From Sphyrna mokarran (taxonomy: Eukaryota): a stretch of DNA of 64,000 nt. The translations under genes and the position numbers were made by a program. Below are positions 1 through 60,231 of this stretch, in pieces; the stretch's first letter is position 1; each line of letters starts with the position of its first letter. The stretch spans positions 4,278,001 to 4,342,000 of the forward strand of contig JAGIQG010000017.1 of NCBI GenBank assembly GCA_024679065.1. Direction: 5' to 3'. Below the pieces are notes generated by a model. The model made no database searches, was not told where the DNA came from, and saw only the letters and a list, made by a program, of their open reading frames with translations.

Positions 1-389
1 TTCTACAAAAAAGACCACTGCTTGTCCAATTTTTCTATTGATAGGATCTTCTGAACCCTACAAACATCAAAAAGCCTTAGATATTGATGAAACGCTTATA
101 ATCATGTTTCCCACACATCGCTCAGCTTTTCATGCATATATTGCAACCGTTAATGGATAGTTCAGCCCATCCGTGCCCTGGCACCATGAGAAATGAGATT
201 GAGAAAAATTGCATGGATTTCTGTGCCCAGCAGAGGGTAGCAAACACAGAAATTGCATCAGGAGCACCAACATTTTCTCATCTGAGACAGAAACTTATTT
301 TCTCTCCGTATAAAGCAATGCCCTGTATGTGACATCACACCCCAGGTACAGGCAGTGGAACTAATTCATGCTCTTTCCTTTTCCTCCAG

Positions 390-512
390 GTTTTCTTCCT
401 GTCCTCGCCCAGCAGTAGCCCGGTGTACTGCCTCCGATTCACTAGCTCACATCTGTATACTGCCTTGGCCCACGCACTTTACATGCTGGATTTTACACAC
501 TCTGACCCATAG
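390..512 (+). CDS. FBXW4: F-box/WD repeat protein 4 (dactylin), last coding exon; rest of gene lies upstream of the window
   Basis: Polypyrimidine acceptor ttccttttcctccAG|G at 388-390. Translates VFFLSSPSSSPVYCLRFTSSHLYTALAHALYMLDFTHSDP* (TAG 510-512), matching the recalled FBXW4 C-terminus (SSPVYCLRLTTKHLYAALSYNLHVLDF). Tail-to-tail with DPCD as in human. Not in the ORF track. Confidence 0.93.
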   Translation, partial: VFFLSSPSSSPVYCLRFTSSHLYTALAHALYMLDFTHSDP

Positions 513-834
513 CAGGGGAAATAAACTTGTGAGCACCGTTATAAAGTGGGGATCCCGATACTGTACATCAGAAGTCAGTACAACGTCAATCAATACTTCG
601 AATCAAGGAGTGTTCCTTCATACTCACAATGCAGGAAACCCTTTCAGGATCACGTTTTGGTTTTGTTAAAAATAGAAGAGGAACCCTTTATTTGCATCAA
701 ATTTTATATGACTAGTCTACTTCTCAGTTGATTCCTGCTACTATCCTCACCTGAAGAAGCTGCCGAGTGACATCTTGATGTTTGGAAGCAAATATTTTGT
801 AAAAAGAATTTACCCAGAATACTGCCTTGTTTCC

Positions 835-1115
835 CAAAAGATTCCACACTGCTTCACATGTAATCACAGTTATTATGTATGCAAACACAGCAGTCAATCT
901 GTGAACAAGATCCCTCAAACAATGAATGAAAAATAATCAGAAATACTTGTTTTCAGCAATAGTGATTCAGAAAGAAACTCTGAACCATAAAAGCTGGGAA
1001 AATATCTTGCTGATTGAAGCCAGCCATGGAGTTTAATGACCAGTCAGATCAGGTTTTTACTTCATCTCATTTAAAGCTCTGAAAATGTGGCACTCCCTCA
1101 ACATTGCTCTGATGT
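835..1115 (-). mobile_element. Decayed SINE, probably DeuSINE (SacSINE1/AmnSINE-like) family
   Basis: Reverse complement resembles the copies at 26.9-27.67 kb, 21.28/23.9 kb, 7.4-7.7 kb and 53.8-54.1 kb (..gggagtgc..gatgaga..ttaaac.. core; tail gctgtgtttcc..aca..). Family name is from memory. Confidence 0.45.
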
Positions 1116-1246
1116 TTCAGCGGAGATGGATACACTAATAAATACTGTTTCCTTGGGGAAAAGAATCCAGCAGCATTCCTGCTTGTGCTTGTTCGCTGTT
1201 TGTCGCAGCTTCTTGGATAAAGGTATCTGTATCCCAATAATGAACA

Positions 1247-2020
1247 AAGCTCCCATCAAACACTCCCAGGACAGGTACAACACAGGGTTAGATACAGAGT
1301 AAAGCTCCTTCTACACTGTCCCCCCCATCAAACACTCTCCCAGGACAGGTACAGCACAGGGTTAGATACAGAGTAAAGCTCCCTCTACACTGTCCCCCAT
1401 CAAACACTCCCAGGACAGGTACAGCACAGGGTTAGATACAGAGTAAAGCTCCCTCTACACTGTCCCCCCCATCAAACACTCCCAGGACAGTTACAGCACA
1501 AGGTTAGATAGAGAGTAAAGCTCCCGCTACACTGTTCCCCCATCAAACACTCCCAGGACAGGTACAGCACGGGGTTAGATACAGAGTAAAGCTCCCTCTA
1601 CACTGTCCCCCCATCAAACACTCCCAGGACAGGTACAGCACGGGGTTAGATACAGAGTAAAGCTCCCTCGACACTGTCCCCCATCAAACACTCCCAGGAC
1701 AGGTACAGCACAGGGTTAGATACAGAGTAAAGCTCCCTCTACACTGTCCCCCATCAAACACTCCCAGGACAGTTACAGCACAAGGTTTGATACAGAGTAA
1801 AGCTCCCGCTACACTGTTCCCCCATCAAACACTCCCAGGACAGGTACAGCACACGGTTAGATACAGAGTAAAGCTCCCTCTACACTGTCCCCATCAAACA
1901 CTCCCAGGACAGTTACAGCACAAGGTTAGATACAGAGTAAAGCTCCCGCTACACTGTTCCCCCATCAAACACTCCCAGGACAGGTACAGCACACGGTTAG
2001 ATACAGAGTAAAGCTCCCTC
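1247..2020 (+). repeat. ~70-bp minisatellite, about 11 units
   Basis: Unit ctccctctacactgtcccccatcaaacactcccaggacaggtacagcacagggttagatacagagtaaag is directly visible in tandem. Confidence 0.97.
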
Positions 2021-2426
2021 TGGTGAAACCTTAAATCAAATCCAGGTACCAAAGGTGAAAAAAATACCTTAAACTTAAAAATATAGAACAATACTTTTAA
2101 GAACAGCAGGCTGAGGGTATGGTATCTGGATCATGGATAACAAGCAGGGGCCCCAGATGTTATTTGTAATCAACAGCAAGAAGGGAGCTGTGTGAGTCAA
2201 ACATTAAACAGCTGGATGTTGTATTGCGAAGACAAGAGGATTGATTTTTCTGGAAGGATGTGCTGCATCAGGTGAATAAACTTTGTGAAAGTATTGTGCA
2301 CAATACTAAGCAAAAATGTAATTTCATCAAATTTTTAATACCCTTATGTCACTATCGTTCCCCCATTGTGTTGTCAGTGGAAGTTAAAACAAAATTATAA
2401 ACTCATTCAGACTGATTACGTATCAG

Positions 2427-2680
2427 AGGCAGCACAGTGGTTAGCACTGCTGCCCCACAGTGCCAGAGATCCGGGTTCAATTCCCAGCTTGGGTCACTGT
2501 CTTTGTGGAGTTTGCATGTTTTCCCATGTTTGCATGGGTTTCCTCTGACAGACTGAAAGATGTGCTGGTTAGTTATATTGAACCAAACAGGCACCGGAGT
2601 GTGGTGACTAGGGGGACTTTCACAGTAACTTAATTGCGGTGTTAATGTAAGCCTTACTTGTGACTAATAAATAAGCTTTT
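2427..2680 (+). mobile_element. tRNA-derived SINE (HE1/V-SINE type)
   Basis: A box (cagtggttagcactg), B box (gggttcaattccc), then the ..tgtggagtttgcatgtt..gggtttcctc domain. Many copies in the window. Confidence 0.85.
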
Positions 2681-3258
2681 TAAATAATCTATAACAGCCT
2701 TGTGAAACTGAGGTGATCCTACAGTCAGAAGGAGCATTTGTAACATATCAAATGTTGAGGCAAATATTTGGTTACTAAAAACCTAAACATGCAATCAGAA
2801 AATCAACTGTGATGGAATGATATATATTACAGGATGTACCTCCTAAATCCAAATCTTCACTTTATAGCTGTGTTGGGATTGGTGAATGTTGAGTGAAAGA
2901 AATAATGTGACCTGGTGATGATTGCCAGGATAATGAATAGCCGTCCTTTTCCTGTACTGGAATCATTGGTCCCTGTGGGGTACAGCGCTTTAATCAAGTC
3001 CTTTCAGAGTGTTAGTCTCAGTAACTCTCATTGCCATCATCCTCAGCACTAGAAACAAATAATTTAGGAAAAACATGACTAATTTCTCAGATAAAGGTGG
3101 TGAGGCACTGAATGATGAGAAAAGTGAATATTCAAGGGAAAAGATATGTTCAATTTATTTTCTCCCCAAATCAGTAGATCGACTGGAACAAAGTACTTCT
3201 GTGCCAATGATACTGGTCAATAAATCACACAATGCACATTTACTTTAAAAAGCAGTAA

Positions 3259-3264
3259 TTTATT
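3259..3264 (-). terminator. Probable DPCD polyadenylation signal (AATAAA)
   Basis: tttatt on + strand, ~265 nt past the DPCD stop codon. Confidence 0.55.
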
Positions 3265-3527
3265 GATGTTCTGCAATTTACAATGTGACTGAGAAATTTC
3301 TAATCCTCCAAAATAAAACCATTCCATCAAGCTTGCAATTTAATTTAAACCTCTATCCATTGCCATCAAGTTGTAAAGATCTGGGCCACGAAGTTCACGT
3401 TTAGCTGCACAGATGCTAAACACAATTAAAACACCACTTCTTACCCCGACCCATTCCTCAAAGTAGGATTCTGCGTTCAAATAGCTTCAGACAGGTCTGT
3501 GTGATTTTAAATGGTAAGTGTTCAGTT

Positions 3528-18113
<14,586 letters not shown>

Positions 18114-19799
18114 CTTACGACAACTTGCCCGGTCTCCCTGACAACCGCGGCCCCGCCCACCGACCCGAGGCTCCGCCCACCGACCCCGCGGCCTCAGTCA
18201 CGTGGCTGCACTGATTTAGTCGGAGTTTTAACGGAAAACCGAATTCCCGCCTTTGGGCCGATCATTGTAAACATTGACAAACACGGTGAACATTTGTAAA
18301 TATTATTAAAAGTTATTATTGATTTTATTCAGTGACTGTCCGAATGAGCCGGAAGTGCAGTGTGTTTCCGGTGCGGTGGGTAAGTGGTCAGGTAATTATC
18401 CCCAGCAGGAGGCCATTCAGCCCGTCCTTCCCGGTGAGGGATAGGAGTGACCGGGGGTGGTTTAAGCCGAGGGTTCCCCACCTCTCAGACCGGGGGCGAG
18501 GTGGAGGAATCACGGCCTTCCGCCGGGGCGGGATTTGAGCCCGCGCTGCTGGAGTCTGTCCACATCAGCAGCCCCCCCCCCCGTGCTGGCTGTCCCAATG
18601 AGAGCCCTCACCACCACTAAAACTTCTTAATGCTTATTTATTAGGGTCTCAAGTACATTAACGCTGCAATGAAGTTGCTGTGAAAATCCCACTAGCGCTC
18701 TGTCAGGCATCCGACTCCCAACTCCACTCTTTGGAAAAGGTTTTCCTCATGTCACTTTTATCAGTTATTTTAAACCTCTGGCTCTCCATCCTTTCACAGG
18801 ATCTCTCCTCTCCTCTGGCTGGACCTCTCCTGGTTTTTGAATACTTTCACCAGATCTCCTCTCAGCCCCTTTTTTTTCCCCTGAGGAAAACATTCCTGAT
18901 GTCTAAGTAACTAAAGTTCCTCATTCCTTGAACAATTTCAATGAATCTTTCCTCCCTTTTATAGATTAGAGGATTCTCTTCAATCGGATTTGAATGGGAT
19001 GTGGGGTCCTGATTGGCTGCTTCTCAATGGCGTTTGACCTGTTAATAGAAGATCATTTGTGCATGTAAAAGTGTTTTTTTCACATAAAGCACAATTTAAT
19101 TGTGTTTGTTCCTGGCAGCTAGCAATAAGAATAAATATCCTCCAGGACAGAAAAATTAGAAATACTTACATAAAGGTCACTGTTTAGTATCTTGTGGATG
19201 TGTTTATGAATTTTAACCAATGCATCCTCCCCATTATTTCCCCACTGGAAATCAAGGTATTTGCTTTTTCCATCCCCTAGCTGTACATAGATGTTCATTA
19301 ACAGTCTGATGAAAATCAGATAATGACATAGAAGAATGATTAAAACTGTGTTTATAAATTCTCAAAATAAAAATAGTTTGGGAAATAACCACTGAATCAT
19401 AGTTGATACATAAAGTGATAAATATATGAAAATGTTTCAACAAAGTTAAATCCAATTGCTGATGAGCATCAAGCTATGACCTAAAGTGGGTCAGCTTTGA
19501 CAAAGGGAAGTTTGGACTCAACATCAGCCTTTTTTCCTCTCCTGACAAATGCTGTCAAACTGCTGAGATTTTCCAGCATCTTCCCTTGTTTCAGATTCCA
19601 GCATCTGCAGTCATTTGCTTTTATCCAGCGTATTAATGCTTCCAGTCTTATTCAGGAAGCTATGAGAGATGGATGTTATGGGAAGTGACAAAAGTATACT
19701 GGTACATTAGATTTTATTTTTGGTTGGGACTGAATGGAGTTAGTTTTATTCTGTATCGAATGTCTGAAAGTGTTTGATGCTGATACTGGGCCTCAGATG

Positions 19800-21181: not shown

Positions 21182-24100
21182 GTAGAAAATATTGTAACGT
21201 TAATCCTTATAGTGTGGATGTTTTAACAGACAGAAACTAAACAATCAAAAAGTGAATAACAAAAGGAAGGATGTGTATTTAGACTGGTCATTATTGCATT
21301 GCTGTTGGAAGTTGCTATGCACAACTGGCTGCTGTGTTTCCAACATAAGAACTCAGTAAGAATTTAGCAACACCAATTTATAATCCAACCGATTTATTTG
21401 ATAGTAAAATTGCGAGCTTTCGACACTGTGTCTTCCTCAGGCAAATGCAGTGTTCTGGTCTGCAATAGCACACATCAGCACAGACAGTCAGAGATTGCTG
21501 ATTAGAATGCGAATCCTTACATCTAACCTGCTATTCAAGTGTTAAAGTGGCTAACAATGTGTGTGAAGGGAATCCTGAGCATTGGTTAGAGAATTGTGTA
21601 TTTTCTCCAGACAGCACAGTAAGTGAGGTTTTTTGCTAACCCAGGCAAGTTACGGGGGTTACAGATAGTGTGTCATGAAGCCAAGATCCCTGTTAAGACC
21701 GTCCTCATGTGTGCGGAGCTTGGCTATCAGTCTCTGCTCAGCGACTCTGCGCTGTCGTGTATCACGAAGGCCCCCTTGAAGAACATTTACCCGCAGGTCG
21801 GAGGCCGAATGCCCATGACTGCTGAAGTGTTCGCCCACAGGAAGGGAACTGTTTTGCCTGGTGATTGTTGAGCGATGCTCATTCATCCGCTGTCGTAGTG
21901 TCTGCATGGTCTCCCCAATGTACCATGCTTCGGGACATCCTTTCTTGCAACGTATTAGGTAGACAACGTTGGCCGAGTTGCAAGAGTATGTACCGTGTAC
22001 CTGGTGAATGGTATCCTCACGTTTGATGATGTCGTCCATGTCTATGATCTGGCATGTCTTGCAGAGGTTGCTGTGGCAGGGTTGTGTGGTATTGTGGTCA
22101 CTGTTCTCCTGAAGGTTGGGTAGTTTGCTGCGAACAATGATCTGTTTGAGGTTGTGCGGTTGTCTGAAAGCAAGAAGTGGGAGGGTGGACACCAACATCC
22201 CCCACGACAATGGTATTGCTGCAACTGCCTCAGTACTCAATGCCAATAACTGCCAGTTTCCGGATGCAATTTTACAACTCATCGGCTTCATCTTGGACCA
22301 CAATATCTTCACCTTCAACAATCAGCTTTTCATCCAGACACACGGAACAGCCATGGGGACCAAATTCGCACCTCAGTATGCCAACATCTTCATGCACAGG
22401 TTCGAACAAGACTTCTTCACCACACGAGATCTCCAACCAAGGTTATATACTAGATACATTGATGACATCTTTTTCCTTTGGACTCATGGTGAACAATCAT
22501 TGAAACAACTGTATGATGATATCAACAAGTTCCATCCCACCATCAGACTCACCATGGACTATTCTCCAGAATCAGTTGCATTCTTGGACACACGCATCTC
22601 CATCAAGGACGGTCACCTCAGCACCTCACTGTACCGCAAACCGACAGACAACCTCACAATGCTCCACTTCTCCAGCTTCCACCCTAGACACGTTAAAGAA
22701 GCCATTCCCTATGGACAAGCCCTCCGTATACACAGAATTTGCTCAGATGAGAAGGATCGTGACAGACACCTCCAGACACTGAAGGATGCCCTCGTGAGAA
22801 CAGGATATGGCGCTCGACTCATCGATCGACAGTTCCAACGTGCCACAACGATAAACCGCACTGATCTCCTCAGAAGACGAACACGGGACACGGTGGACAG
22901 AGTACCCTTTGTTGTCCAGTACTTCCCCGGAGCGGAGAAGCTACGACATCTTCTCCGGAGTCTTCAACATATCATTGATGACGATGAACATCTCGCTAGG
23001 GCCATCCCCACCCCCCCACTTCTTGCTTTCAGACAACCGCACAACCTCAAACAGATCATTGTTCGCAGCAAACTACCCAACCTTCAGGAGAACAGTGACC
23101 ACAATACCACACAACCCTGCCACAGCAACCTCTGCAAGACATGCCGGATCATAGACATGGACGACATCATCAAACGTGAGGATACCATTCACCAGGTACA
23201 CGGTACATACACTTGCAACTCGGCCAACGTTGTCTACCTAATACGTTGCAAGAAAGGATGTCCCGAAGCATGGTATATTGGGGAGACCATGCAGACACTA
23301 CGACAGCGGATGAATGAGCATCGCTCAACAATCACCAGGCAAAACAGTTCCCTTCCTGTGGGCGAACACTTCAGCAGTCATGGGCATTCGGCCTCCGACC
23401 TGCGGGTAAATGTTCTTCAAGGGGGCTTTCGTGATACACGACAGCGCAGAGTCGCTGAGCAGAGACTGATAGCCAAGCTCCGCACACATGAGGACGGTCT
23501 TAACAGGGATCTTGGCTTCATGACACACTATCTGTAACCCCCGTAACTTGCCTGGGTTAGCAAAAAACCTCACTTACTGTGCTGTCTGGAGAAAATACAC
23601 AATTCTCCAACAATGCTCAGGATTCCCTTCACACACATTGTTAGCCACTTTAACACTTGAGTAGCAGGTTAGATGTAAGGATTCGCATTCTAATCAGCAA
23701 TCTCTGACTGTCTGTGCTGATGTGTGCTATTGCAGACCAGAACACTGTTGTGGGACAGTGTCGAAAGCTCGCAATTTTACTATCAAATAAATCGGTTGGA
23801 TTAAAAATTGGTGTTGCTAAATTCTTACTGAGTTCTTACCACCCCAATCCAACGCCGGCATCTTTACATCATTTCCAACATAAGGACAGTGATTACACTT
23901 CAAAAGCAATGCATTGACTGTAAAACATGTTGGCACTTTCCGAGACCGGGGAAGGCTCTATCCGAATCCAAGTCTTTTATTTATTTACCATCGTAATATT
24001 GACAATGCAAACCAAATTGGCAACACGGCAGCAATTTTCAGTAAAGAAAGATCCATCTAGAAGAACATAAGAAATAGGAGCAGGAGTAGGCTATCTAGCC

Positions 24101-27100
24101 CAACGAGCCTGCCCCGCCATTCAATAAGATCATGGCTGATGTGAAGTGGATCCGTTCCATTTACCCGCCTGCTCCCCATAACCCTTAATTTCTTTATTGA
24201 TCAGAAATCTATCTACCTGTGACTTAAACATATTCAACGAGGTGGCCTCCACCACTTCAATGGGCAGAGAATTCCAGAGATTCACTACCCTCTGAGAGAA
24301 GTTGTTCCTCCTCAACTCTGTTCTAAACCGACCCTCCTTTATTTTGAGGCTGTGCCGTCTAGTTCTGGTTTCCTTTCTAAGAGGAAAGAATCTCTCTACC
24401 CTATCCAGCCCCTTCCTTATCTTATATGTCTCTATAAGATCCCACCTCAGCCTTCTAAACTCCAACAAGTACAGGCCCAATCTACTCAATCTCTCCTCAT
24501 AAGCTAACCCTCTCATCTCCAGACAAAGGCAACAGGTGCATGTGAACACCACCACCTGGCTTAGAAATGTATCAGCTGTCCCTTCACTATCACTGGGTCA
24601 AAATCCTGGAATTCCCTTTCTAACAGCGCTGTGGGTGTACCTACAGGATATCCCACCAGCAAGCACCAAAGTGACCGTGAAGAAAGCAAAGCCGAATGAA
24701 GTCAGGAAAGGTAGAAAATATTGTGACGTTAATCCTTATAGTGTGGATGTTGGAACAGACAGAAACTAAACAGAATCAAAAAGTGAATAACCAAAGGAAG
24801 GATGTGTATTTAGACTGCACAGACCGCAGCAGCTCAAGAAGACAGTTCCCCATCAGCTTCTGTAGTTGACAAGTCTCCAGAGCTTTGCTGCAAAACTCTC
24901 CAAAATCTGTGTGTAGGTCCAGATGTCTTTTGAAATTTCCTGTGGAATCTATTTGCATCTAATTTTCAGGTTGTGGATTTTAAAATTCTCTGATAGGAAA
25001 AAATTCTTATCTCCCTTCTGAGCCTTTGCTAATTACTGCTCAATTTGTAGCTGCCTCCATCCAGCTCTAAACCCTCCTCAATCCCAGCTCTCTGACCCTC
25101 AATCCCAGCTCTCTAATTCCCAGCCCCAGCTTTCTGCCCCCCAATCCAAACTCCAAATCCCCCCAACTCTAATTCCAAATCCCCTCCAATCCCAGCTTCC
25201 TGCTCCTCCAACCCCAGCTCCCAGCCCCCCCAAAATCCAGATTCATAGATCAGCGTCCATCCCCCAGCTCCCAAACCCAGCTCTGTGCCTCCTGCCATTG
25301 TCAGCTTTACATTCTCCATGCAAAACAACATTGAAAACAAATGGTTGCAGTTCCTGTCAATGGTCAGGATGCACTCCATCACGTGGCAGTGGTCCGGGCA
25401 CACTTTGCCACATCGCAGTTGACGTTAGCTGATCTTTCCTTTCTTTATCTCATTTTGACAGAAGCCTGGCTGAGTGGATTGACAGTGTACATTGTCCAAG
25501 CAGGAATTGGTAAGGCTCGGACAGAAATCTTTCAGAAGCAGGTCATACAGAATGGTGGGGAAGTTAGCCTTGCTTTCTCCCCTGCCGTTACCCATGTGAT
25601 CATTGATGATGGAATGGATTGTGAGCGTGCCTTTCGCCTCCTGAAGCTGGAGGTGCTGCCTCCCAGTGTCCAGCTTGTGCGATCAACGTGGCTCAGTTTG
25701 TGCATTACAGCGAGGAGAGTCCTGAGCACTGCAGGTTACAGCGTCTTCATCCCAGACAGATACTTGCCACCTGAACAGTGGGCCAAGATTCAAGTATCAG
25801 CAGGTGAGGGTCAGCAAGGGAGCACAGAGACCAACTGTCAATCAGGGACACACACAAAGGCCCAATTGAATTGTACAGAGGCAATAAAAACAATTACTGA
25901 GCAGCCAAGAGAGACCACACCGGAGGAAAAGAGTGAAATAGTACAAGCTGCAACAGCACAGGTACAGTAACTCTCATTTCTCCCACCCTCTTCTCGAACC
26001 CCTTTGGCTCTTCAGTTCTCCTCGATCTCTTCAAACCTTCAATTCTGATCTCTTGTCCATCCCCAATTTTAATCTTCACACCATTGGCGGACATGTCTTC
26101 AGCTGCCTGGGTGCCGAGATCCAGAATTCCCTTCCAAAATCTCTCCACCTCTTCATCTCTTTCCTTTAAGATGCTTCTTAAATCTCTCTCTTTGACCAAA
26201 CTTTTGGCCTCCTGTTTAGAATACTTGATGTCAAGCTGTGTCTGATAACCATTCTGAGGCATTTCGGGAAGCTTTACTACCTTAAAGGTGCTAGACAAAT
26301 GTAAATTGTTGTTGTCCATTTTCACTTTGGAGAATTCTCCAGCATTTCCACCTGTACATTCTTCACCAGTTAGTGGCACCTAGCCTGAGGCCAGGCTTGT
26401 CCTCAGCCTTTCAGAGTGGGAACCAGATTTCTGGAATGAGAATCAATGCATTCAGGTTATCCCCAGAGTGGGAATCCGTATTCTTGGAGGGATTAACTAG
26501 GACTCTTGACTGATTCCCAGCTCCTCTTGCTCTGCTGTGGCCAGTTATTGGAGCACAGTTACTGTTCTGCAATGATCATTTATTTCACCCGCTGTCATTG
26601 GGAGGTGGGGATCAAGTCGGGTTGCATTGCATCAGGGTCAACCTGGAGAAGCAGAGATATGGGGAGGCACTAGTGATCTTTAGAAGAGATTAGAAGTGTG
26701 TCCAGTGGCACTCAAGCATTGCATTAATCCGATGCTCTTGATAAGATTCTACATGAAGTACTGATAATAACCTGTCTTTGGGAGTGCAGTTTGCCCATTC
26801 TAAGCCGCTATTAAACAAAATACCTGCCTACTGTCCCCTTTGCCTTTATGTCACTGAGGCATAAGGAGATGAAAATGTCCCTCGTGGTACACAGTGTCAG
26901 GTGTGTCTCAGTGGGTAACACCTTTGCTCTTGAATCAGAACAATCAATTTGAGTCCCATTCCAGAAATCTGATCTCTTTGACACTTCCATTGCAGTACTG
27001 AGGGAACACAATAACATTGGATGGCAATACCGAGGGAGTGCCGCATTGTCAGAGGGTCAGTGCCGCGCTGCATTGTCAGAGGGTCAGTGCCGCGCTGCAT

Positions 27101-36100: not shown

Positions 36101-38042
36101 GGGTTTTAATTGAAATCGGGAGGGAACTCGGGAGTATTTTGCACAAACAAAGCAATAAAGGAATCTTGTCTGCATGATTAAAAGCTGTGCTGTAATAGAG
36201 ATCTACACTTGTGATAGGCAAGTCCTGCTGAACATATCCCCACATGCACAGCTGTCCCCAACAGTTGTCACAGGAACAGTGAACAGCTCACGCCTGCCAC
36301 AGAGTGTCAAACCCAAGGAATGCGACACAGTGGGAGAGGGAAGAGGTGCAGTTTTTCATTCCCGCTTCATTGTGCTGAATAAAGAGGGAATGGCCTTCCT
36401 ATCCCAGATTGGAGGAGCTAACAGCAGCTTCAGATCACAAATCAATCAGAATCCAACAGTTGTCACTCCGAGGGGAGCAAAGCCTATTGTTGAGTGAAAG
36501 TGTAACTCACGGCGATGACTGAGACCCTATTGAGGCTATAAGGAGTTGAGAAAGGGATTAACAGGATTATACCATCTATCTGTGTGTCAAACGGATTAGC
36601 TCAATTTGAGTGGAAGTGTCAAGATTCTTTCAGCTCAGCTGCCAGACCGCCAGTGGCTTCACTCCAAAAACCCAGGTGTTTGGCTATTCAGAATGAATGT
36701 TTAGGAGAGCAATAGAGTAGGAGGCATAAGAAATTAAAATAACACAATCAAAGAAACAGGAGTTAAACTTCTAGTGGAAGAAGCAAAAATGATAAGACAA
36801 AGGAGAGAGAGAGAGCCACAAAGAAATGGGGGGAGAAACAACCGAGAAGTATACGAAATCCAGCGTCGGGGCGGAGGGGGAGTGGGGGTGAGGTGAAACC
36901 CAGTGTTGGGCAGAGGGGGTGAGCCGGGACCCAGCGTCAGGGCAGAGGGGGAGTGGGGGGTGAGCTGCGATCCAGTGCTAGTTATTATCAGTTGCTTTTA
37001 CCTGTGTTTCAGGTGAGAGACATGGCTCACTCCATTAATCCAACCCTGATTGCCCTGGCTTGTGGTTCCTATCGACGTGGGAAGCCCACCTGTGGGGATG
37101 TGGACGTTCTGATCACACATCCGGATGGAAAATCGCACAGAGGTGTTTTTAGTAAAATCTTGGCTGGGCTGAGGGACACAGGTGAGTGTGACAAGCAATG
37201 TGGCAATGGGCAAGGAACAGGCTTATCAGCATAGATATCTCAGTGTTTGATGGGGAGAGTGTAGAGGGAGTTTTACTCTGTATCTAACCCTGTGCTGTAC
37301 CTGTCCTGGGAGTGTTTGATGGAGACAGTGTAGAGGGAGCTTTTCTCTGTATCTAACCCTGTGCTGTACCTGTTCTGGGAGTGTTTGATGGGGAGAGTGT
37401 AGAGGGAGCTTTACTCTGTATCTAACCCCACGCTGTACCTGTCCTGGGAGTGTTTGATGGGGCACAATGTAGAGGGAGCTTTACTCTGTATCTAACCCCA
37501 TGCTGTACCTGCCCTGGGAGTGTTTGATGGGGACAGTGTAGAGGGAGCTTTACTCTGTATGTGACCTTGTGCTGTAGCTGACTCTAAACTGAACTGTGTA
37601 GATTTGCAGAGAGATTTTGCAGTTTCCTGAGCATAGAACATTTCCTGTTTGAAATTTGATGTTGAATTTTCTGTTGAAAGGATTTCTCACCGATGATCTG
37701 GTGATTCAGGAGGACATTGGAAACCAGAAAAAGTACCTGGGAGTTTGTCAGCTCCCGGGAGTGAAGCGTCGTCAGCGCCGGCTCGATATCATTGTGGTGC
37801 CGTACAGCGAGTTTGCCTGCACTCTGATGTACTTCACCGGCTCCGCACATTTTAACCGGTCCATTCGTGCATTGGCCAAGACAAAAGGCATGAGTCTATC
37901 GGAGCACTCACTGAACTGCCATGTCCTAAGAAAGGGGAGTACCAAAATCAGCAGCGGCGTCACAATCCCCACCATAACTGAACAAGATATCTTTGAGCAG
38001 CTGGGACTGCCGTACAGAGAGCCGTGTGAGAGAGACTGGTGA
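21067..38042 (+). CDS. POLL: DNA polymerase lambda, complete; join(21067..21181,25462..25961,27786..28094,31897..32070,32601..32729,37013..37181,37681..38042), 1758 nt, 585 aa
   Basis: GT/AG boundaries and phases are consistent. Motifs: N-terminus [14 protein letters not shown] domain, 8-kDa lyase domain ([22 protein letters not shown]), [39 protein letters not shown] and C-terminus YREPCERDW*. Confidence 0.97.
21350..23871 (+). mobile_element. Penelope-like retroelement, 5'-truncated RT + GIY-YIG endonuclease, preceded by an inverted copy of its own 3' ~840 bp
   Basis: Open frame 22189-23537 with [34 protein letters not shown], then NVVY..C..C..WYIGET..R.NEH..HF..E..LN. Inverted arms ~21346-22188 vs 23008-23838. 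13-bp TSD tttccaacataag at 21337-21349 and 23872-23884. Confidence 0.95.
21410..21444 (-). ncRNA. Minimal type-I hammerhead ribozyme motif in Penelope pLTR
   Basis: Minus strand UUGC-CUGAGGA-A-GACA(cag)UGUC-GAAA-GCUC-GCAA: intact core, stems I and II, palindromic AGCU stem III. Confidence 0.7.
24062..24520 (-). mobile_element. CR1 3' fragment
   Basis: ORF 24130-24555 gives [25 protein letters not shown]; tail cttatgttctt. Confidence 0.9.
24644..24817 (+). repeat. Local duplicate of 21115-21286 (3' part of POLL coding exon 1 plus start of the intron)
   Basis: Direct comparison shows near identity with a few substitutions and indels. Inserted into a LINE 3' remnant (24520-24860). Confidence 0.95.
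25060..25285 (+). repeat. C-rich low-complexity tandem repeat (cccagctc-like)
   Basis: Degenerate repeats of cccagctc/ccaaatccc. Confidence 0.7.
25462..25961 (+). CDS. POLL: POLL coding exon 2 (BRCT domain + linker)
   Basis: ttttgacAG|AA GCC TGG; [29 protein letters not shown]. Donor CAG|GTACAG is the phase-0 option required by the next exon (weak donor). Confidence 0.9.
26890..27670 (+). mobile_element. DeuSINE-like SINE with internal tandem expansion
   Basis: tRNA-like head at ~26900, core cagtactgaggga..tgagacattaaac..aggcc, tail gaaaggtgctatagaaatacaagtc. Confidence 0.55.
27025..27370 (+). repeat. GC-rich minisatellite with 27-bp and 38-bp units
   Basis: Units tgccgcgctgcattgtcagagggtcag, then tgccgagggagtgccgcactgcattgtcagagggccag. 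Confidence 0.93.
27786..28094 (+). CDS. POLL: POLL coding exon 3
   Basis: ctccttAG|TTA TCT GAA; ..[46 protein letters not shown]|GTAAAA. Confidence 0.95.
29933..30210 (+). mobile_element. tRNA-derived SINE (HE1/V-SINE type)
   Basis: Head, V-type domain and tail as in the other copies. Confidence 0.8.
30938..31800 (-). mobile_element. CR1 3' fragments
   Basis: ORFs 31068-31271 and 31286-31552 ([19 protein letters not shown]). Confidence 0.88.
31897..32070 (+). CDS. POLL: POLL coding exon 4
   Basis: tttcacAG|GAA GCT TGC; [28 protein letters not shown]...[14 protein letters not shown]|GTGGGA. Confidence 0.96.
32601..32729 (+). CDS. POLL: POLL coding exon 5
   Basis: ttttacAG|GGA TTC AGA; GFRTLDDVR...[24 protein letters not shown]|GTGAGT. 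Confidence 0.96.
33325..35000. mobile_element. Two Rex1/Babar-like LINE fragments (33325-34545 minus; 34660-35000 plus)
   Basis: [31 protein letters not shown]; (aaatc)n tail. Confidence 0.85.
37013..37181 (+). CDS. POLL: POLL coding exon 6 (catalytic DxD)
   Basis: gtttcAG|GTG AGA GAC; [24 protein letters not shown]; G|GTGAGT. Confidence 0.97.
37240..37580 (-). repeat. Same ~70-bp minisatellite as 1247-2020, ~5 units, opposite orientation
   Basis: gtgtttgatggggacagtgtagagggagctttactctgtatctaaccc.. units fill most of POLL's last intron. Confidence 0.95.
37681..38042 (+). CDS. POLL: POLL coding exon 7 (last)
   Basis: gttgaaAG|GA TTT CTC ACC GAT GAT; [38 protein letters not shown]. Confidence 0.97.
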
Positions 38043-38186
38043 CGTTCTGCTGCAGGCTGGCAGAGGCCTGATTGCCTATGACTGTAGGTGCATCATGATG
38101 TAGAGATGTCGGTGTTGGACTGGGGTAAACTCAGTAAGAGTCTGGCAACACCAATTTTAAATCCAACCGATTTATTTGGTAGTAAA

Positions 38187-38222
38187 TCTACAAGCTTTCG
38201 ACTTTCATCTTCGTCAGGCAAA
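38187..38222 (-). ncRNA. Minimal hammerhead ribozyme motif (left arm)
   Basis: Minus strand UUUGC-CUGACGA-A-GAU(gaaa)GUC-GAAA-GCUU-GUAGA. Confidence 0.65.
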
Positions 38223-38803
38223 GGCAATGTTCTGGTCTGTGACAGCACACATACCAGCACAGACAGTCACAGATTGCTGATTAGAATGCGAATCCTTATA
38301 CCTAACCTGCTATTCAAGTCTTAAAGTGGCTAACAATGTGGGTGAAGGGAACCCTGAGCATTGGTTAGAGAGATGTGTATTTTCTCCAGACAGCACAGTA
38401 AGTGAGGTTTTTTGCTAACCCAGGCAAGTCCTGGGAGTTATAGATAGTGTGACATGAAGCCAAGATCCCTGTTAAGACTGTCCTCATGTGTGTGGCGCAG
38501 AGTCGCTGAGCAGAGACTGATAGCCAAGTTCCGCATACATGAGGACAGTCTTAACAGGGATCTTGGCTTCATGTCACACTATCTGTAACCCCCAGGACTT
38601 GCCTGGGTTAGCAAAAAACCTCACTTACTGTGCTGTCTGGAGAAAATACACATTTCTCTAACCAATGCTCAGGGTTCCCTTCACCCACATTGTTAGCCAC
38701 TTTAAGACTTGAATAGCAGGTTAGGTATAAGGATTCGCAATCTAATCAGCAATCTGTGACTGTCTGTGCTGATATGTGTGCTATTGCAGACTAGAACATT
38801 GCC

Positions 38804-38839
38804 TTTGCCTGACGAAGATGAAAGTCGAAAGCTTGCAGA
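38804..38839 (+). ncRNA. Minimal hammerhead ribozyme motif (right arm, sense to POLL)
   Basis: UUUGC-CUGACGA-A-GAU(gaaa)GUC-GAAA-GCUU-GCAGA; predicted scissile bond after 38834. Confidence 0.68.
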
Positions 38840-38849
38840 TTTACTATCA

Positions 38850-38855
38850 AATAAA
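38850..38855 (+). terminator. Candidate POLL polyadenylation signal supplied by the Penelope pLTR
   Basis: First AATAAA found by eye downstream of the POLL stop codon. Confidence 0.45.
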
Positions 38856-39779
38856 TTGGATTTAAAATTGGTGTGGGTGCATCACCCAGTGAGGGCCTGA
38901 AACACAGGCTAGGAACACGCCAGCTTCAACTCCCGTGTGTGCTACACTGCTGCTTTGAGTGGTTTTTATGTCTTTATCATGAAACGACAGTTCACCTTTG
39001 GTGAGCTTTATGGTCTGAAAAAAACAAACGGGTAGGAACCTAGGGAGGTTTTTAATCAATCACTGGGTCAGTTGTGGCTGCTTGGACCACCACTAAATAT
39101 CAGGGAAAGGATGCAAAGAAAATGTACTGCAGGTATACTGTTTTAAGTTATGTAAAGATACTGGAAAAGCAGATATTCTTCTCATCAGGGCCGAGAAAAT
39201 TAATAGAGATTTAATAGAGATGTTCAAATCATTTATGCGATTGGATAGAGTCAATCCATTTTACCCACAGACAGCTGAAAGATCAAAGATTTATCGTAAT
39301 TGACAAAAAAAAACCAAAAGGGGAGTGAGATTTTTTTACGTAGTGAGTTGTTATCTGGATTACGCTCCCTCAATGGATGGAGAAACAGACTCAATAATAA
39401 CTTTTAAAATTGTAGAATGGAAAAAGGAAGGAGAGGTGAACTAAGTGAATCTCTCTCTCAAAGAGCTGGCCAGACATGATGGGCCAAATGGCTTCTCACA
39501 TGTTATGATTCCACATCTCTGCCGTCTGCTTCATCTCATTCTTCTTTGCCTGTGAATCCCTCAAAACCTGGGTGCCCTCCTGCACTCTGCAGTTCAGCTT
39601 TCCCCACGGCCTCACACAGTAACAGGGCAGGACAGGCCCACCATCCCGGCTCCATACTCCCATCTTCAAGGAGCCAACAGCCTACTATCCTGTGCAGATA
39701 TGCAATCAACAATTAGAAACAAGAGGCAGTCACTAAACCCCTTAAACCTTTCCTCTAAAGACAGGCATTAGAATCTTCT

Positions 39780-42700
39780 ACAAATGAGTAAAAAGGAAAA
39801 GAATAGCTGAAATGAGATGGGAATTGATGGGAAATGAGGCGGAAGCTTTGAACAAGAATTTTTATGTCCATCTTTGTGGAAGAAGTTCCAAAAAGCATCC
39901 CAAGAATAGTTAAAAATGAAAAGGCAAAATGAAGGGAGGAACTTAGAACCATCAGTGTTCAGAGAGAAAAAGTAATACATGCCCCCAGACTTGATTTTGG
40001 CCGGAATCCAGGCTCTTTAAAAAGGGAATAATGGATGCATTTAATGCATTGATTTTTGTATAATTTCTTAGATGCTCGAAAGATCCAATGGATTGGAAAA
40101 TCACAAATCTAACACTTCTGTTCAAGAAAGAAGACAGAGAACAAGAAACCCAGTTAGTCTGGCATCTGTTATTATTGGAATCCATTCTTAAAGAGGTGGT
40201 AGCAAGACGTTTAGAAAAAGCACAAGATAGTCCAGCTGAGTCAACAGTTTTGTGAAAGAGAAATCATGTTTGACAAATCTGTGAGAGTAGATTTAACAAA
40301 CAGGGTAAATAAAGGAGAACCAGTAAATATGATATATTTGGATTTCTGAATGGCATTTCTTAAGTTATCATATAAAAGATCGCCATGCAAGAGCATAGGT
40401 ATGGGGGATGATACATTAGCATGGAGGTCCAGCTAACTAACAGAACACAAAGTCACGGGAAACAGGCCCTCCAGCCCAACGAGCCCGCGCCGCCATCCCG
40501 ATGTTCCCACCTCTACCCGCGATCCCTGTCCGTGTTTATAGATCTGACACAGGATTGATAATTTTCAGGTGGGCAAACTGTAACTAGTGGAGTGTTGCTG
40601 GGGCCTCAGCTATTTACATCCAATACTAATGACTTGGATGAAGGGACAAACTGAAGGGACAAATTGCTGATGATACCAAGGTAGATAGAAAAGCAAGTTG
40701 CAAGGTGAATACAATGGGTGGGATTTTGCAGCTATGCATTCCAGGGAATTTCTCAGCTGTGCATTCCAGGGAATTTCTCAGCTGTGCATTCTGGGGGATT
40801 TTCTGATCCTGCTACAGTGAATAGAGATTTGGTGAAGAGCTGAAAAATTCCAGCCAAAGAGTTTGAAATACACTGTCATGGATTGAGGATTGTTTTCTGC
40901 CCAATAATCAGAGTTGGGATAAAGGGATCATTGTCAGATTGGCCGGCTGTTATTACTGAGGTACCACAGGGATCAATGCTGGGGGCTGCAGCTATTCACT
41001 CTCTATCATTTGAATGTGAAGACTGAAAGTAATATTTTCATGTTTGCCCATGACACAAAATGTAGTGAGAATATAAATGTAAATATGTGGGGTTAAGAAG
41101 ATAGAGTCTGGGTGGAAATGTGGTTGGTGCAGGCTTGATGGGCTGAATGGCCTCCTTCTGCACTGGGAAATAATTTAGCAATCATATATCTGCTATGCAA
41201 ATCTTTGGTGAACTTGCTACTAAAGTAATGTTAAAATTCAAGTTTTTTTATTAGTCACAAATACGCTCATATTAACACTGCAATGAAGTTACTGTGGAAT
41301 TCCCCTAGTTGCCACACTCTGGCGCCTGTTTGGGTCAATTCACCTAACCAGCATGTCTTTAAGAATGCTGGGGGGGAAATGGGAGTACCCGGAGGAAACC
41401 CACGCAGACAATGTACAAACTTCGCACTGACAATGACCCAAGCTTGCAATCAAACCTAGGTCCCTGGCACTGTGAAGTAGCAGTGCCAGTCATTGTACTA
41501 CTGTGCCATGAATGTGAGCTGTGAGGAGGATATAAAGTGACTTCAAGGGGAGTTAGGCAGGCTGAGTGAGTGAAAGAACATGGCAGATGGAATATAGTGT
41601 GGGAAAAAGTGAATATATCTACTTTGGTAGGAAAAGCAGAACTGCTTGGACTGGAGATTAGATTGGAGAGTGTCGATGTCCAGCTGTTCTTGTTCATGAC
41701 TTTCTGAAAGCTGCAGGTACAACAAGCAATTAGAAAGGCAAATGGTATCTTAGCCTTTATCTGAAGAGGATTTGAGTACAGGAGTAAGAAAGTCTTGCTG
41801 CAATTTTTTGTCAGATCACGCTTGAGTATAGTGTGCAGTTTTGGTGGCCATGGAAGAAATGTAATAAAAGTTAACCAGACTAACCAGTTGGATGCTAGAG
41901 GGAGTTTTTTCACACAGAGGGTGGTGGGGGTATGGAATGCGCTGCCAAGTAAAGTGGTGGAGGCAGGCTCTCTGGAGTTATTTAAGAAATACTTAGATGG
42001 GCACATGAACAGAATGGGAATGGAGGGGTATAGAAAACTGATTTAAAATAGAGATCATGAGCCTTGGGAGTCCTGGGAAGTGTGTAAATAGATGATGATA
42101 TTGATGTACTTGTTCTTATCCTACAGGTGCTTTGGTCCACCTTCTTGTCTAATAAGGGGCATACATGCAATGGGTCGTGAGAGGACTGCTCTTGGATTTT
42201 TTTTTAAAGTATCCTAGTGCTTTACGTCGCTAGTGTACACTTGACCTGGACATTTGATGGGCAACACGACAGCTCAGTGACTATCACTGTGTTGTGCAGA
42301 TACATGGATTTGGGCCTGTGTCCGTGGGAGTTTGCACATTCTTCCCGTGCTTGCGTGGGTTTTCTCTGGTTTCCTCCCACATAGAACATAGAACACTACA
42401 GCACAAACAGGCCCTTCGGCCCACAAGTTGTGCCAAACACATCAAAACCTACCCAGCCATAGACCTATCTATAACCCCCAATCCCATTGGATCCCATATA
42501 CTCATCCAGAAGTCTTTTAAAAGACCCCAGCGAGTTCGCCTCGACCACCACCGACGGCAGCCGATTCCATTCACTCACCACCCTCTGAGTGAAAAACTTT
42601 CTCCTAGCATCCCTCTGTACTTGCTTCCCTGCACCTTAAATCTGTGCCCTCTCGTCGCGACCATTTCAGCCCTGGGAAATAGTCTCTGAGAGTCCACCCT

Positions 42701-58961: not shown

Positions 58962-59098
58962 TTACAAGTTCCTTCCCAGAACCAACATCTCTTTCGGAAA
59001 TCCCTCCATTTTGGCCAACTCCAAGAAGCCCAGCTTTCTGTAGAATTCCAGCCCTCGTCGATCATTGGGTTTTACTTCACAGAATGCTCCTCGTGACC
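58962..59098 (-). CDS. OGA: O-GlcNAcase (OGA/MGEA5)-family gene, last coding exon; possibly a paralogue rather than the orthologue
   Basis: tcctttttttAG|GG TCA CGA; (G)[44 protein letters not shown] vs recalled human [45 protein letters not shown]. 137 nt, phase 1. Not in the ORF track; no upstream exon found within the window. Confidence 0.88.
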
Positions 59099-60231
59099 CT
59101 AAAAAAAGGAAATAAGTAGGAATTTAACTCATCGGAACCCATTGCAAACAACCTGCAATGGAATAGGCACTCCAATATACCCTGGATCCATCACAGGCCA
59201 TCTATTCTCTGTCATCTTTCAGCCACTTGACTGAAAAAGCTTTTGATCACTTATCCCAATATCTTACCTGGCTTGGTGTCAAATTTTGTTTGATAACTGC
59301 TCCTGTAAAGCACTCTGGCATGCTTAACTACATTAAAGGTGCTATAAAAATGTAATTTGCTGATGTTACGTAGAAACTACGTGACAGTGACATTTCCTTT
59401 CTACTGCTACCCAGTAACAAGAATGTGCCAATTCAACCAAGGCCCCGCTTCCCCATACCATCCCCACACATTCAGAATTTTGGGTGAAATTCAGAGTTTG
59501 CAACACAGCATAAGCATGTTGCTTGTTAGGACAGCACATTTCAACATGCCTGAAATATGGGCCTTGGGCCTAACTAATGTATCCTGCAACTGCAATTTAG
59601 GATTAAGAAGTTCAGTGTTACAAGATAGAATCAAGTATGTTTTAAAGCAATCCTAGGTCTTGATTAGACACATTGATGTTTGAATGCTTGCCATGACAAT
59701 TTATATTTATATAAACATTGTATAATTAACTTTTAAATTAGAAATATGTCAACCAATTAGAAATGCAAGTATCTAAATGCTATTTCCAGCAGTTGGAATC
59801 AAATAGAAGAAATGGAGACATAAAACAGGAAACAAAGCTACAGCAGTGCCTCAGTTACCAAATAAAAATGCACCCAAATCAAAATATACTATCTGTAATC
59901 ACAGGGTATTATTCTCTCTCTCATGTCTGAGTCAGAAAAAGATACACAGCACAGAAAAAGGCCCTTCAATCCCATCTCATCTGCACTCAAGACAAACCAC
60001 CCAAACTATTACAATGTCATTTTCCAGGACTTGGCCCAAAGCCTCGTAATGCCTTAGTTTTGCATCCTCAATCTCCTCTGCTCTAAAGATAATCTTAGAG
60101 TATCCAATCATCCTTCATAACTCAAACTCTCCAGCCAGGCAACATCCTGGTAAATCTGCTCTGCACCCTTTCCAGTGCTATCACATCACTCCCATATGGA
60201 TTCCAGAATTACTCACAATACAGAGTGGCAA

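Follow-up and report, generated by a model that had tools for sequence, protein, structure and literature searches.

POLL and its gene neighbourhood

We analysed a stretch of 64,000 nucleotides from the shark Sphyrna mokarran (contig JAGIQG010000017.1, positions 4,278,001 to 4,342,000, forward strand), hereafter the window, in whose coordinates all positions are given. POLL lies on its plus strand as a frame of 585 amino acids without internal stop, built from seven GT-AG-joined coding exons. In a comparison with human proteins, the last exon reaches E 4e-53 for DNA polymerase lambda and no better than 2e-17 for pol beta. From the ATG to the site of a transposon insertion behind the stop, spliced POLL measures 1,798 nt. 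The own-species run X1 contains 39/39 sampled words of 37681–38095, which covers the exon and the proximal UTR. The region behind the last intron has the following features:

37681–38042, plus strand: last coding exon of POLL, TGA at 38040–38042
38043–38095, plus strand: proximal native 3′ UTR, 53 nt, with the left target-site duplication at its end
38083–38095, plus strand: left copy of the target-site duplication, 13 bp including one mismatch, of which the 9 bp at 38087–38095 are exact
38096–38147, minus strand: 3′ end and tail of a Penelope-like copy, which the inverted arm lacks (alignments to the family extend to query position 399, those of inverted arms to 347–375)
38148–38495, minus strand: left arm, the tail-bearing pLTR copy antisense to POLL
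38496–38530, plus strand: loop of about 36 nt, element sequence prolonging the sense strand of the right arm (the longer copy L032 aligns over 38494–38874)
38531–38871, plus strand: right arm, an inverted pLTR copy in sense orientation to POLL, 5′-truncated and without a tail (pairing with the left arm continues to 38874 over 3 nt that also belong to the duplication)
38804–38839, plus strand: minimal type I hammerhead motif, found by motif inspection, predicted cut after U38834
38850–38855, plus strand: first AATAAA after the POLL stop, predicted to be fully paired
38872–38884, plus strand: right target-site duplication (exact 9-bp core 38876–38884), at whose first base the contigs of relatives begin to fit
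38885–40452, plus strand: downstream flank, inferred distal POLL 3′ UTR, covered by one own-species contig and by relatives' contigs

Upstream of POLL lies an exon that we take, from protein motifs, to be the last of an FBXW4-like gene (plus strand, near 400–510, within window 333–18197). The minus-strand exons from about 18110 presumably belong to a DPCD-like gene, named in the same way. Exons for a beta-TrCP D-domain and for FGF lie on the plus strand of the same contig, 190–560 kb upstream, and this order of genes is not the human one.

The POLL introns carry repeats of their own. The intron behind the first coding exon repeats the 3′ half of that exon, donor site included, over 174 bp (24644–24817; 94.8%). 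The repeated stretch has AG before 24647 and GT after 24710, and the 64-nt piece would shift the frame if spliced in. The last intron hosts a tandem repeat at 37242–37580 with a unit of 69–70 bp in about five copies, and similar units occur near 1200–2000.

Anatomy of the insertion

The insertion is 776–780 bp long, with its first base 53 nt 3′ of the POLL stop. An alignment of its two arms (38148–38495 and 38531–38874) over 348 columns shows 13 substitutions and a single indel of 4 nt, and the measured arm identity is 96.5%. The predicted fold has a minimum free energy of −667.6 kcal/mol (z −52.6), which was equalled by 0/20 shuffles. The target duplication comprises an exact 9 bp, or 13 bp when one mismatch is allowed. 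The right end of the insertion is probably at 38871, since the duplication thereby extends to 13 bp, within the 12–14 bp of other family copies.

A preliminary description of this DNA had placed a duplication-bounded insertion with two near-identical inverted arms, and hence a long duplex, in the POLL 3′ UTR 53 nt past the stop, and both the coordinates and the predicted fold agree with it. It had missed that the loop is element sequence, and that the left arm together with 38096–38147 is a tail-bearing minus-strand copy with its own hammerhead (core near 38217–38192) and its own AATAAA (38171–38176).

At 7 positions both arms deviate from the family majority in the same way, as would be expected if a single insertion event had produced the two. 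Arm-specific changes number nine in the left arm and 4 in the right. On the POLL strand, 8 G-U stand against 4 A-C mismatches (p 0.39), so that no constraint on the duplex is seen in this comparison of low power.

The insertion belongs to a Penelope-like family

Judged from its longer copies, the insertion is a truncated EN+ Penelope-like element (PLE) with no ORF sequence remaining, in line with the name given to it in the preliminary description. A search with the left arm plus tail yielded 8,204 first-look candidates, of which 40 were scored. L032 extends the pLTR upstream into a match to the reverse transcriptase (RT) model RVT_1 (PF00078; E 1.4e-4, under cut-off), with GIY-YIG in the next frame (E 8.9e-5, over cut-off). 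In a longer copy, GIY-YIG (PF01541) reaches 23.2 bits against a cut-off of 22.6. The nearest Atlas clusters are HTH_animal/RVT_1, at 0.95–0.96. Pfam gave no match for 5/7 frames from longer copies, nor for the 378-aa frame of L031. The family thus combines RT followed by GIY-YIG in longer copies, a head-to-head inverted 5′-truncated copy, a one-sided tail and a short duplication, as expected of PLEs. In the longer copy P0001, a C-x4-5-C-x2-C motif lies 3′ of RT, in the linker; this position fits the Neptune or Nematis clade as characterised in PMC8557442, and the family may belong to one of the two.

Further copies occur elsewhere. The intron after the first POLL coding exon holds a second, larger fold-back of the same family (21350–23871), with 843-bp arms of 97.5% identity and a 13-bp duplication (21337–21349 / 23872–23884). 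Its 474-codon open frame (22113–23534) matches RT and GIY-YIG in a single frame, each slightly below cut-off. An older, diverged Penelope-like fragment (72–83% to the family) at 13205–14002 consists of two pieces in opposite orientation. A pair of hammerhead matches on one strand at G000:C1:146634585-146637645, separated by 3,031 bp, possibly represents both pLTRs of a full-length family copy.

We then inspected how common the fold-back is. An inverted copy lies on the 5′ side within 1.5 kb in 15/29 other best-matching copies (these being the top matches of one query, 15/29 is no genome-wide rate), and a duplication of 12–14 bp brackets both arms in 12 of those 15 fold-backs. Searching for a 30-nt hammerhead pattern gave 733 exact matches; the first 100 listed, counted by eye, include 11 head-to-head and 0 tail-to-tail pairs. 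The arm identity behind POLL is ordinary, as 16 measured pairs span 91.8–98.0%. An inverted 5′-truncated copy plus tail is presented as the typical PLE insertion in PMC8557442 and PMC3846280, and opposite-strand hammerhead pairs spaced 100–700 bp appear in PMC4209133. The fold-back is therefore the usual, previously published insertion shape of the element family, and no POLL-specific explanation of the layout is needed.

Compared with the canonical EN+ PLE unit, as PMC3846280 and PMC8557442 outline it, the POLL insertion shares the head-to-head inverted copy, the tail on one arm, a duplication within 9–13 bp, the pLTR hammerhead and, in longer copies, RT followed by GIY-YIG. It differs in lacking ORF sequence and in sitting in the 3′ UTR of a protein-coding gene. 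The tail-side extension is 52 nt here, against the 30–40 bp quoted there, because the inverted arm behind POLL ends early (query position 347, against 357–375 in most others).

The hammerhead motif and the first AATAAA are predicted to be buried

The right arm contains the boxes of a minimal type I hammerhead. Specifically, stem I is formed by 38804–38808 and 38835–38839 (UUUGC/GCAGA), and the core boxes are CUGACGA (38809–38815) and GAAA (38827–38830). There is an additional A38816 between positions 9 and 10.1, a G38817–C38826 pair, a palindromic AAGCUU helix III and a CUU triplet. CUU is a weak hammerhead cleavage triplet. The motif thus has the sequence elements of the PLE-type minimal type I hammerhead, for which self-cleavage would take place as a dimer or with the help of protein. 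Over 37500–39500, Rfam at E≤5 returned no hammerhead family and two weak matches far under gathering scores; the assignment is by motif inspection, and the Rfam models do not detect it. The core boxes, the extra base between 9 and 10.1, the G10.1–C11.1 pair, the short helix I and the palindromic helix III are like those of metazoan PLE minimal hammerheads (PMC4209133). In the POLL motif, by contrast, helix II is limited to 3 bp, its loop is GAAA, and one pair is G-U in both arms, where 20/29 other copies have C.

AATAAA occurs after the POLL stop first at 38850, then at 40308, 41863 and 42771, and the variant hexamers AGTAAA (38181) and AATACA (38645) precede the first. Other copies keep AATAAA in 26/29 and both hammerhead core boxes in 21/29 cases, so their survival behind POLL is unremarkable.

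Both elements had been listed in the preliminary description, the core at 38804–38839 and the first AATAAA at 38850, with the proposal that the antisense arm buries them. The predicted fold bears this out: in full length it pairs the hammerhead core and AATAAA with a probability of 0.99–1.0, and the burying duplex (−97.9 kcal/mol) exceeds the hammerhead fold (−4.6 kcal/mol) by about 90 kcal/mol. AGTAAA at 38181 is likewise predicted to be paired once the right arm is transcribed. The two other hammerhead motif matches in the window are both on the minus strand; hence, the POLL pre-mRNA has no detected dimer partner in cis. In PMC4209133, a single minimal hammerhead was not cleaved in vitro and dimers were cleaved little. 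The hammerhead of an anole element required protein, and RNA-seq ends at the cut site were absent (PMC11167929). Among Xenopus dimers, 1/9 cleaved (bioRxiv 10.64898/2026.07.22.740005).

Coverage runs past the element

Assembled contigs were compared over 38496–40500 in 4/22 runs, namely the own-species run X1 and the relatives X15, X2 and X16. Such contigs reveal neither strand, RNA ends nor levels, so that clustered starts or ends of molecules, of which none was reported, would escape them, and assembly drops minor poly(A) tips. X1 is the sole own-species run found, and its RNA status is guessed; its size of 98 million letters, 3.5% of the genome size, argues against DNA without proving the point.

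In X1, a single unbranched and gap-free contig of 1,598 nt covers 38855–40452 and is identical to the window throughout. It spans the zone in which cleavage would be expected, runs 1.6 kb past AATAAA and stops at the start of another high-copy repeat. It includes 17–21 element letters, below the 31-letter bar for bridging. Its start at 38855 coincides with the duplex edge; editing, a loss of coverage and branching into paralogues are possible causes. A transposon-donated poly(A) site would leave ends 10–35 nt after AATAAA; the contig, in this one run and by contigs only, spans 38855–40452 instead. X1 contains sequence on both sides of the hairpin, and the transcript would be continuous from the exon through the hairpin into the flank.

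The preliminary description had also raised presence or absence of the insertion in related sharks. In the relatives (3/3), nothing of the flank contig fits ahead of 38872, where the 13-bp duplication begins; the empty site as such is read from lengths and from where the fit starts. Upstream of 38872, the letters that do not fit number 1,902 in X15, 2,859 in X2 and 514 in X16. The 514 letters of X16 would reach 37569, the edge of the intronic tandem repeat, and the length in X15 fits spliced POLL. These lengths and the start of the fit are consistent with an empty site in relatives. The contigs of the RNA-sized relatives' runs X15 and X2 reach 40455.

The X1 contig passing AATAAA by 1.6 kb, together with relatives that cover the flank without the arm, makes it likely that the native POLL 3′ UTR is older than the insertion and reaches past 40452. 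A minor share of the transcripts may still end at the 38850 signal as a proximal poly(A) isoform, given that 570 loose ends fall outside the listing. Old LINE-like fragments, recognised by eye, lie within the inferred distal UTR (window 39150–40700). A high-copy repeat at about 40453 is where the long X1, X15 and X2 contigs stop, and AATAAA 40308 lies inside them.

A convergent neighbour as the source of the downstream RNA was rejected. The convergent gene found, an O-GlcNAcase on the minus strand with its last exon at 58965–59123, ends 18.5 kb past the contig end, and the beta-TrCP and FGF matches are on the plus strand and upstream. The downstream frame scan had a floor of 40 aa, at which a small or non-coding antisense gene could be missed.

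X1 shows 3 A>G and 2 T>C among 7 places. Hundreds of paralogous records pile onto the arm and swamp any editing signal there; the listed place 38727 is a family allele that also occurs in a DNA-sized run.

Discussion

We hold it to be quite probable that the insertion rides in the POLL 3′ UTR as a passenger, a duplex that hides its own hammerhead and AATAAA while the RNA is read through to the far side. A lineage-restricted, 5′-truncated Penelope-like insertion, made of a tail-bearing and an inverted copy, would have landed inside an older and longer POLL 3′ UTR. In transcription of POLL the antisense arm precedes the sense arm, which would therefore pair while emerging. The hammerhead and AATAAA would remain buried and unused, and the mRNA would continue to its native end past 40452. 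The duplex of about 345 bp would then likely share the fate of inverted Alu pairs in 3′ UTRs, namely ADAR editing and perhaps some nuclear retention or Staufen binding, with an effect on POLL output that would be at most modest and unselected. In the open literature, we found nothing on an insertion at the POLL locus.

Known systems resemble the hairpin in part. Typical Alu pairs are less tight than the POLL hairpin. Inverted Alu pairs in 3′ UTRs are likewise a transposon-derived long duplex, expected to be a substrate of ADAR, NONO and STAU1 (PMC11263572), whereas the POLL arms come from one insertion event, are 96% identical and are separated by a 36-nt loop. The POLL duplex is likely an ADAR substrate, since PMC5625713 reports Penelope as heavily edited in lizard and hyper-editing as abundant in repeats of the elephant shark. 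The HIV-1 polyA hairpin, which occludes AAUAAA (PMC2645353), also holds a poly(A) signal within a stem; it is small and has a described role in regulating polyadenylation, whereas the POLL duplex spans 345 bp, and nothing about it points to a second conformation or to selection. Xenopus retrozymes that overlap exons tend toward 3′ UTRs (bioRxiv 10.64898/2026.07.22.740005).

It is rather unlikely, in our estimate, that the hairpin is an unselected but real modulator, in which editing, retention, Staufen binding or an excision resembling SOS splicing alters the level, place or UTR of POLL mRNA while the distal end is kept. Such a role would suit a near-perfect duplex of about 345 bp that begins about 105 nt past the stop, given that PMC11263572 attributes retention and effects of STAU1 to inverted Alu pairs in 3′ UTRs, and that worm SOS splicing excises inverted repeats from 3′ UTRs (PMC12779559). 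Among the 8 X1 records listed, there is also no long exact own-locus piece over the right arm, which editing, a block to reverse transcription or tangling with paralogues could each explain. Against this, the X1 contig is unbranched over 38872–38885, where assembly would be expected to join an abundant excised or empty form, and the SOS splicing described in PMC12779559 is from worm, not shark.

The preliminary description had gone further, taking the element to supply the POLL 3′ end and the left arm to toggle between duplex, hammerhead cleavage and polyadenylation at about 38870–38890. Neither part is supported, and we regard such a switch as very unlikely. Although 38850 is the first AATAAA after the stop, the core boxes of the sense-arm hammerhead are intact, editing might in principle loosen the duplex and a minor proximal isoform is compatible with the contigs, the own-species contig continues 1.6 kb beyond the signal and the contigs of two relatives, on which the arm is missing, cover the flank to 40455. 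Both motifs are fully paired in the predicted fold, the antisense arm is transcribed first, the duplex stands at about −98 against −4.6 kcal/mol for the hammerhead fold, and no trigger is apparent. According to PMC4209133 and PMC11167929 the motif requires a dimer partner or protein, and single minimal hammerheads go uncleaved in the former; within the window, all further matches to it sit on the minus strand. Retention of the signals in most other copies makes their survival here unremarkable.

That the downstream coverage is antisense RNA, unspliced RNA or DNA, with a variant signal ending POLL upstream of the left arm or inside it and the hairpin mostly outside the mature message, is scarcely credible: the contigs give no strand or molecule type and AGTAAA stands at 38181, but three RNA-sized runs from three organisms share the same flank to 40452–40455, the upstream length in X15 fits spliced POLL, the convergent gene is 18.5 kb off and AGTAAA is predicted to be paired.

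Read as a passenger duplex, the locus adds a 3′ UTR example to the Penelope-like insertions of a shape already published. If editing did free the buried poly(A) signal or ribozyme, the insertion would be a transposon-built RNA switch, from which the coverage points away. A broader conjecture, which we consider unlikely, is that Penelope fold-backs neutralise themselves in either orientation, because a transcript crossing one would begin with the antisense arm and so bury the ribozyme and the poly(A) signal, and that editing, retention or excision of the inverted repeat behind POLL measurably tunes the mRNA of this DNA-repair gene, heavy editing possibly setting the proximal poly(A) site free; sharks would then carry hundreds of such hairpins, some of them in mRNAs. 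Aside from this, the locus offers a natural test case for how a non-mammalian vertebrate handles near-perfect mRNA hairpins, as a tight duplex of about 345 bp lies in the UTR of a single-copy gene and relatives apparently lack it.
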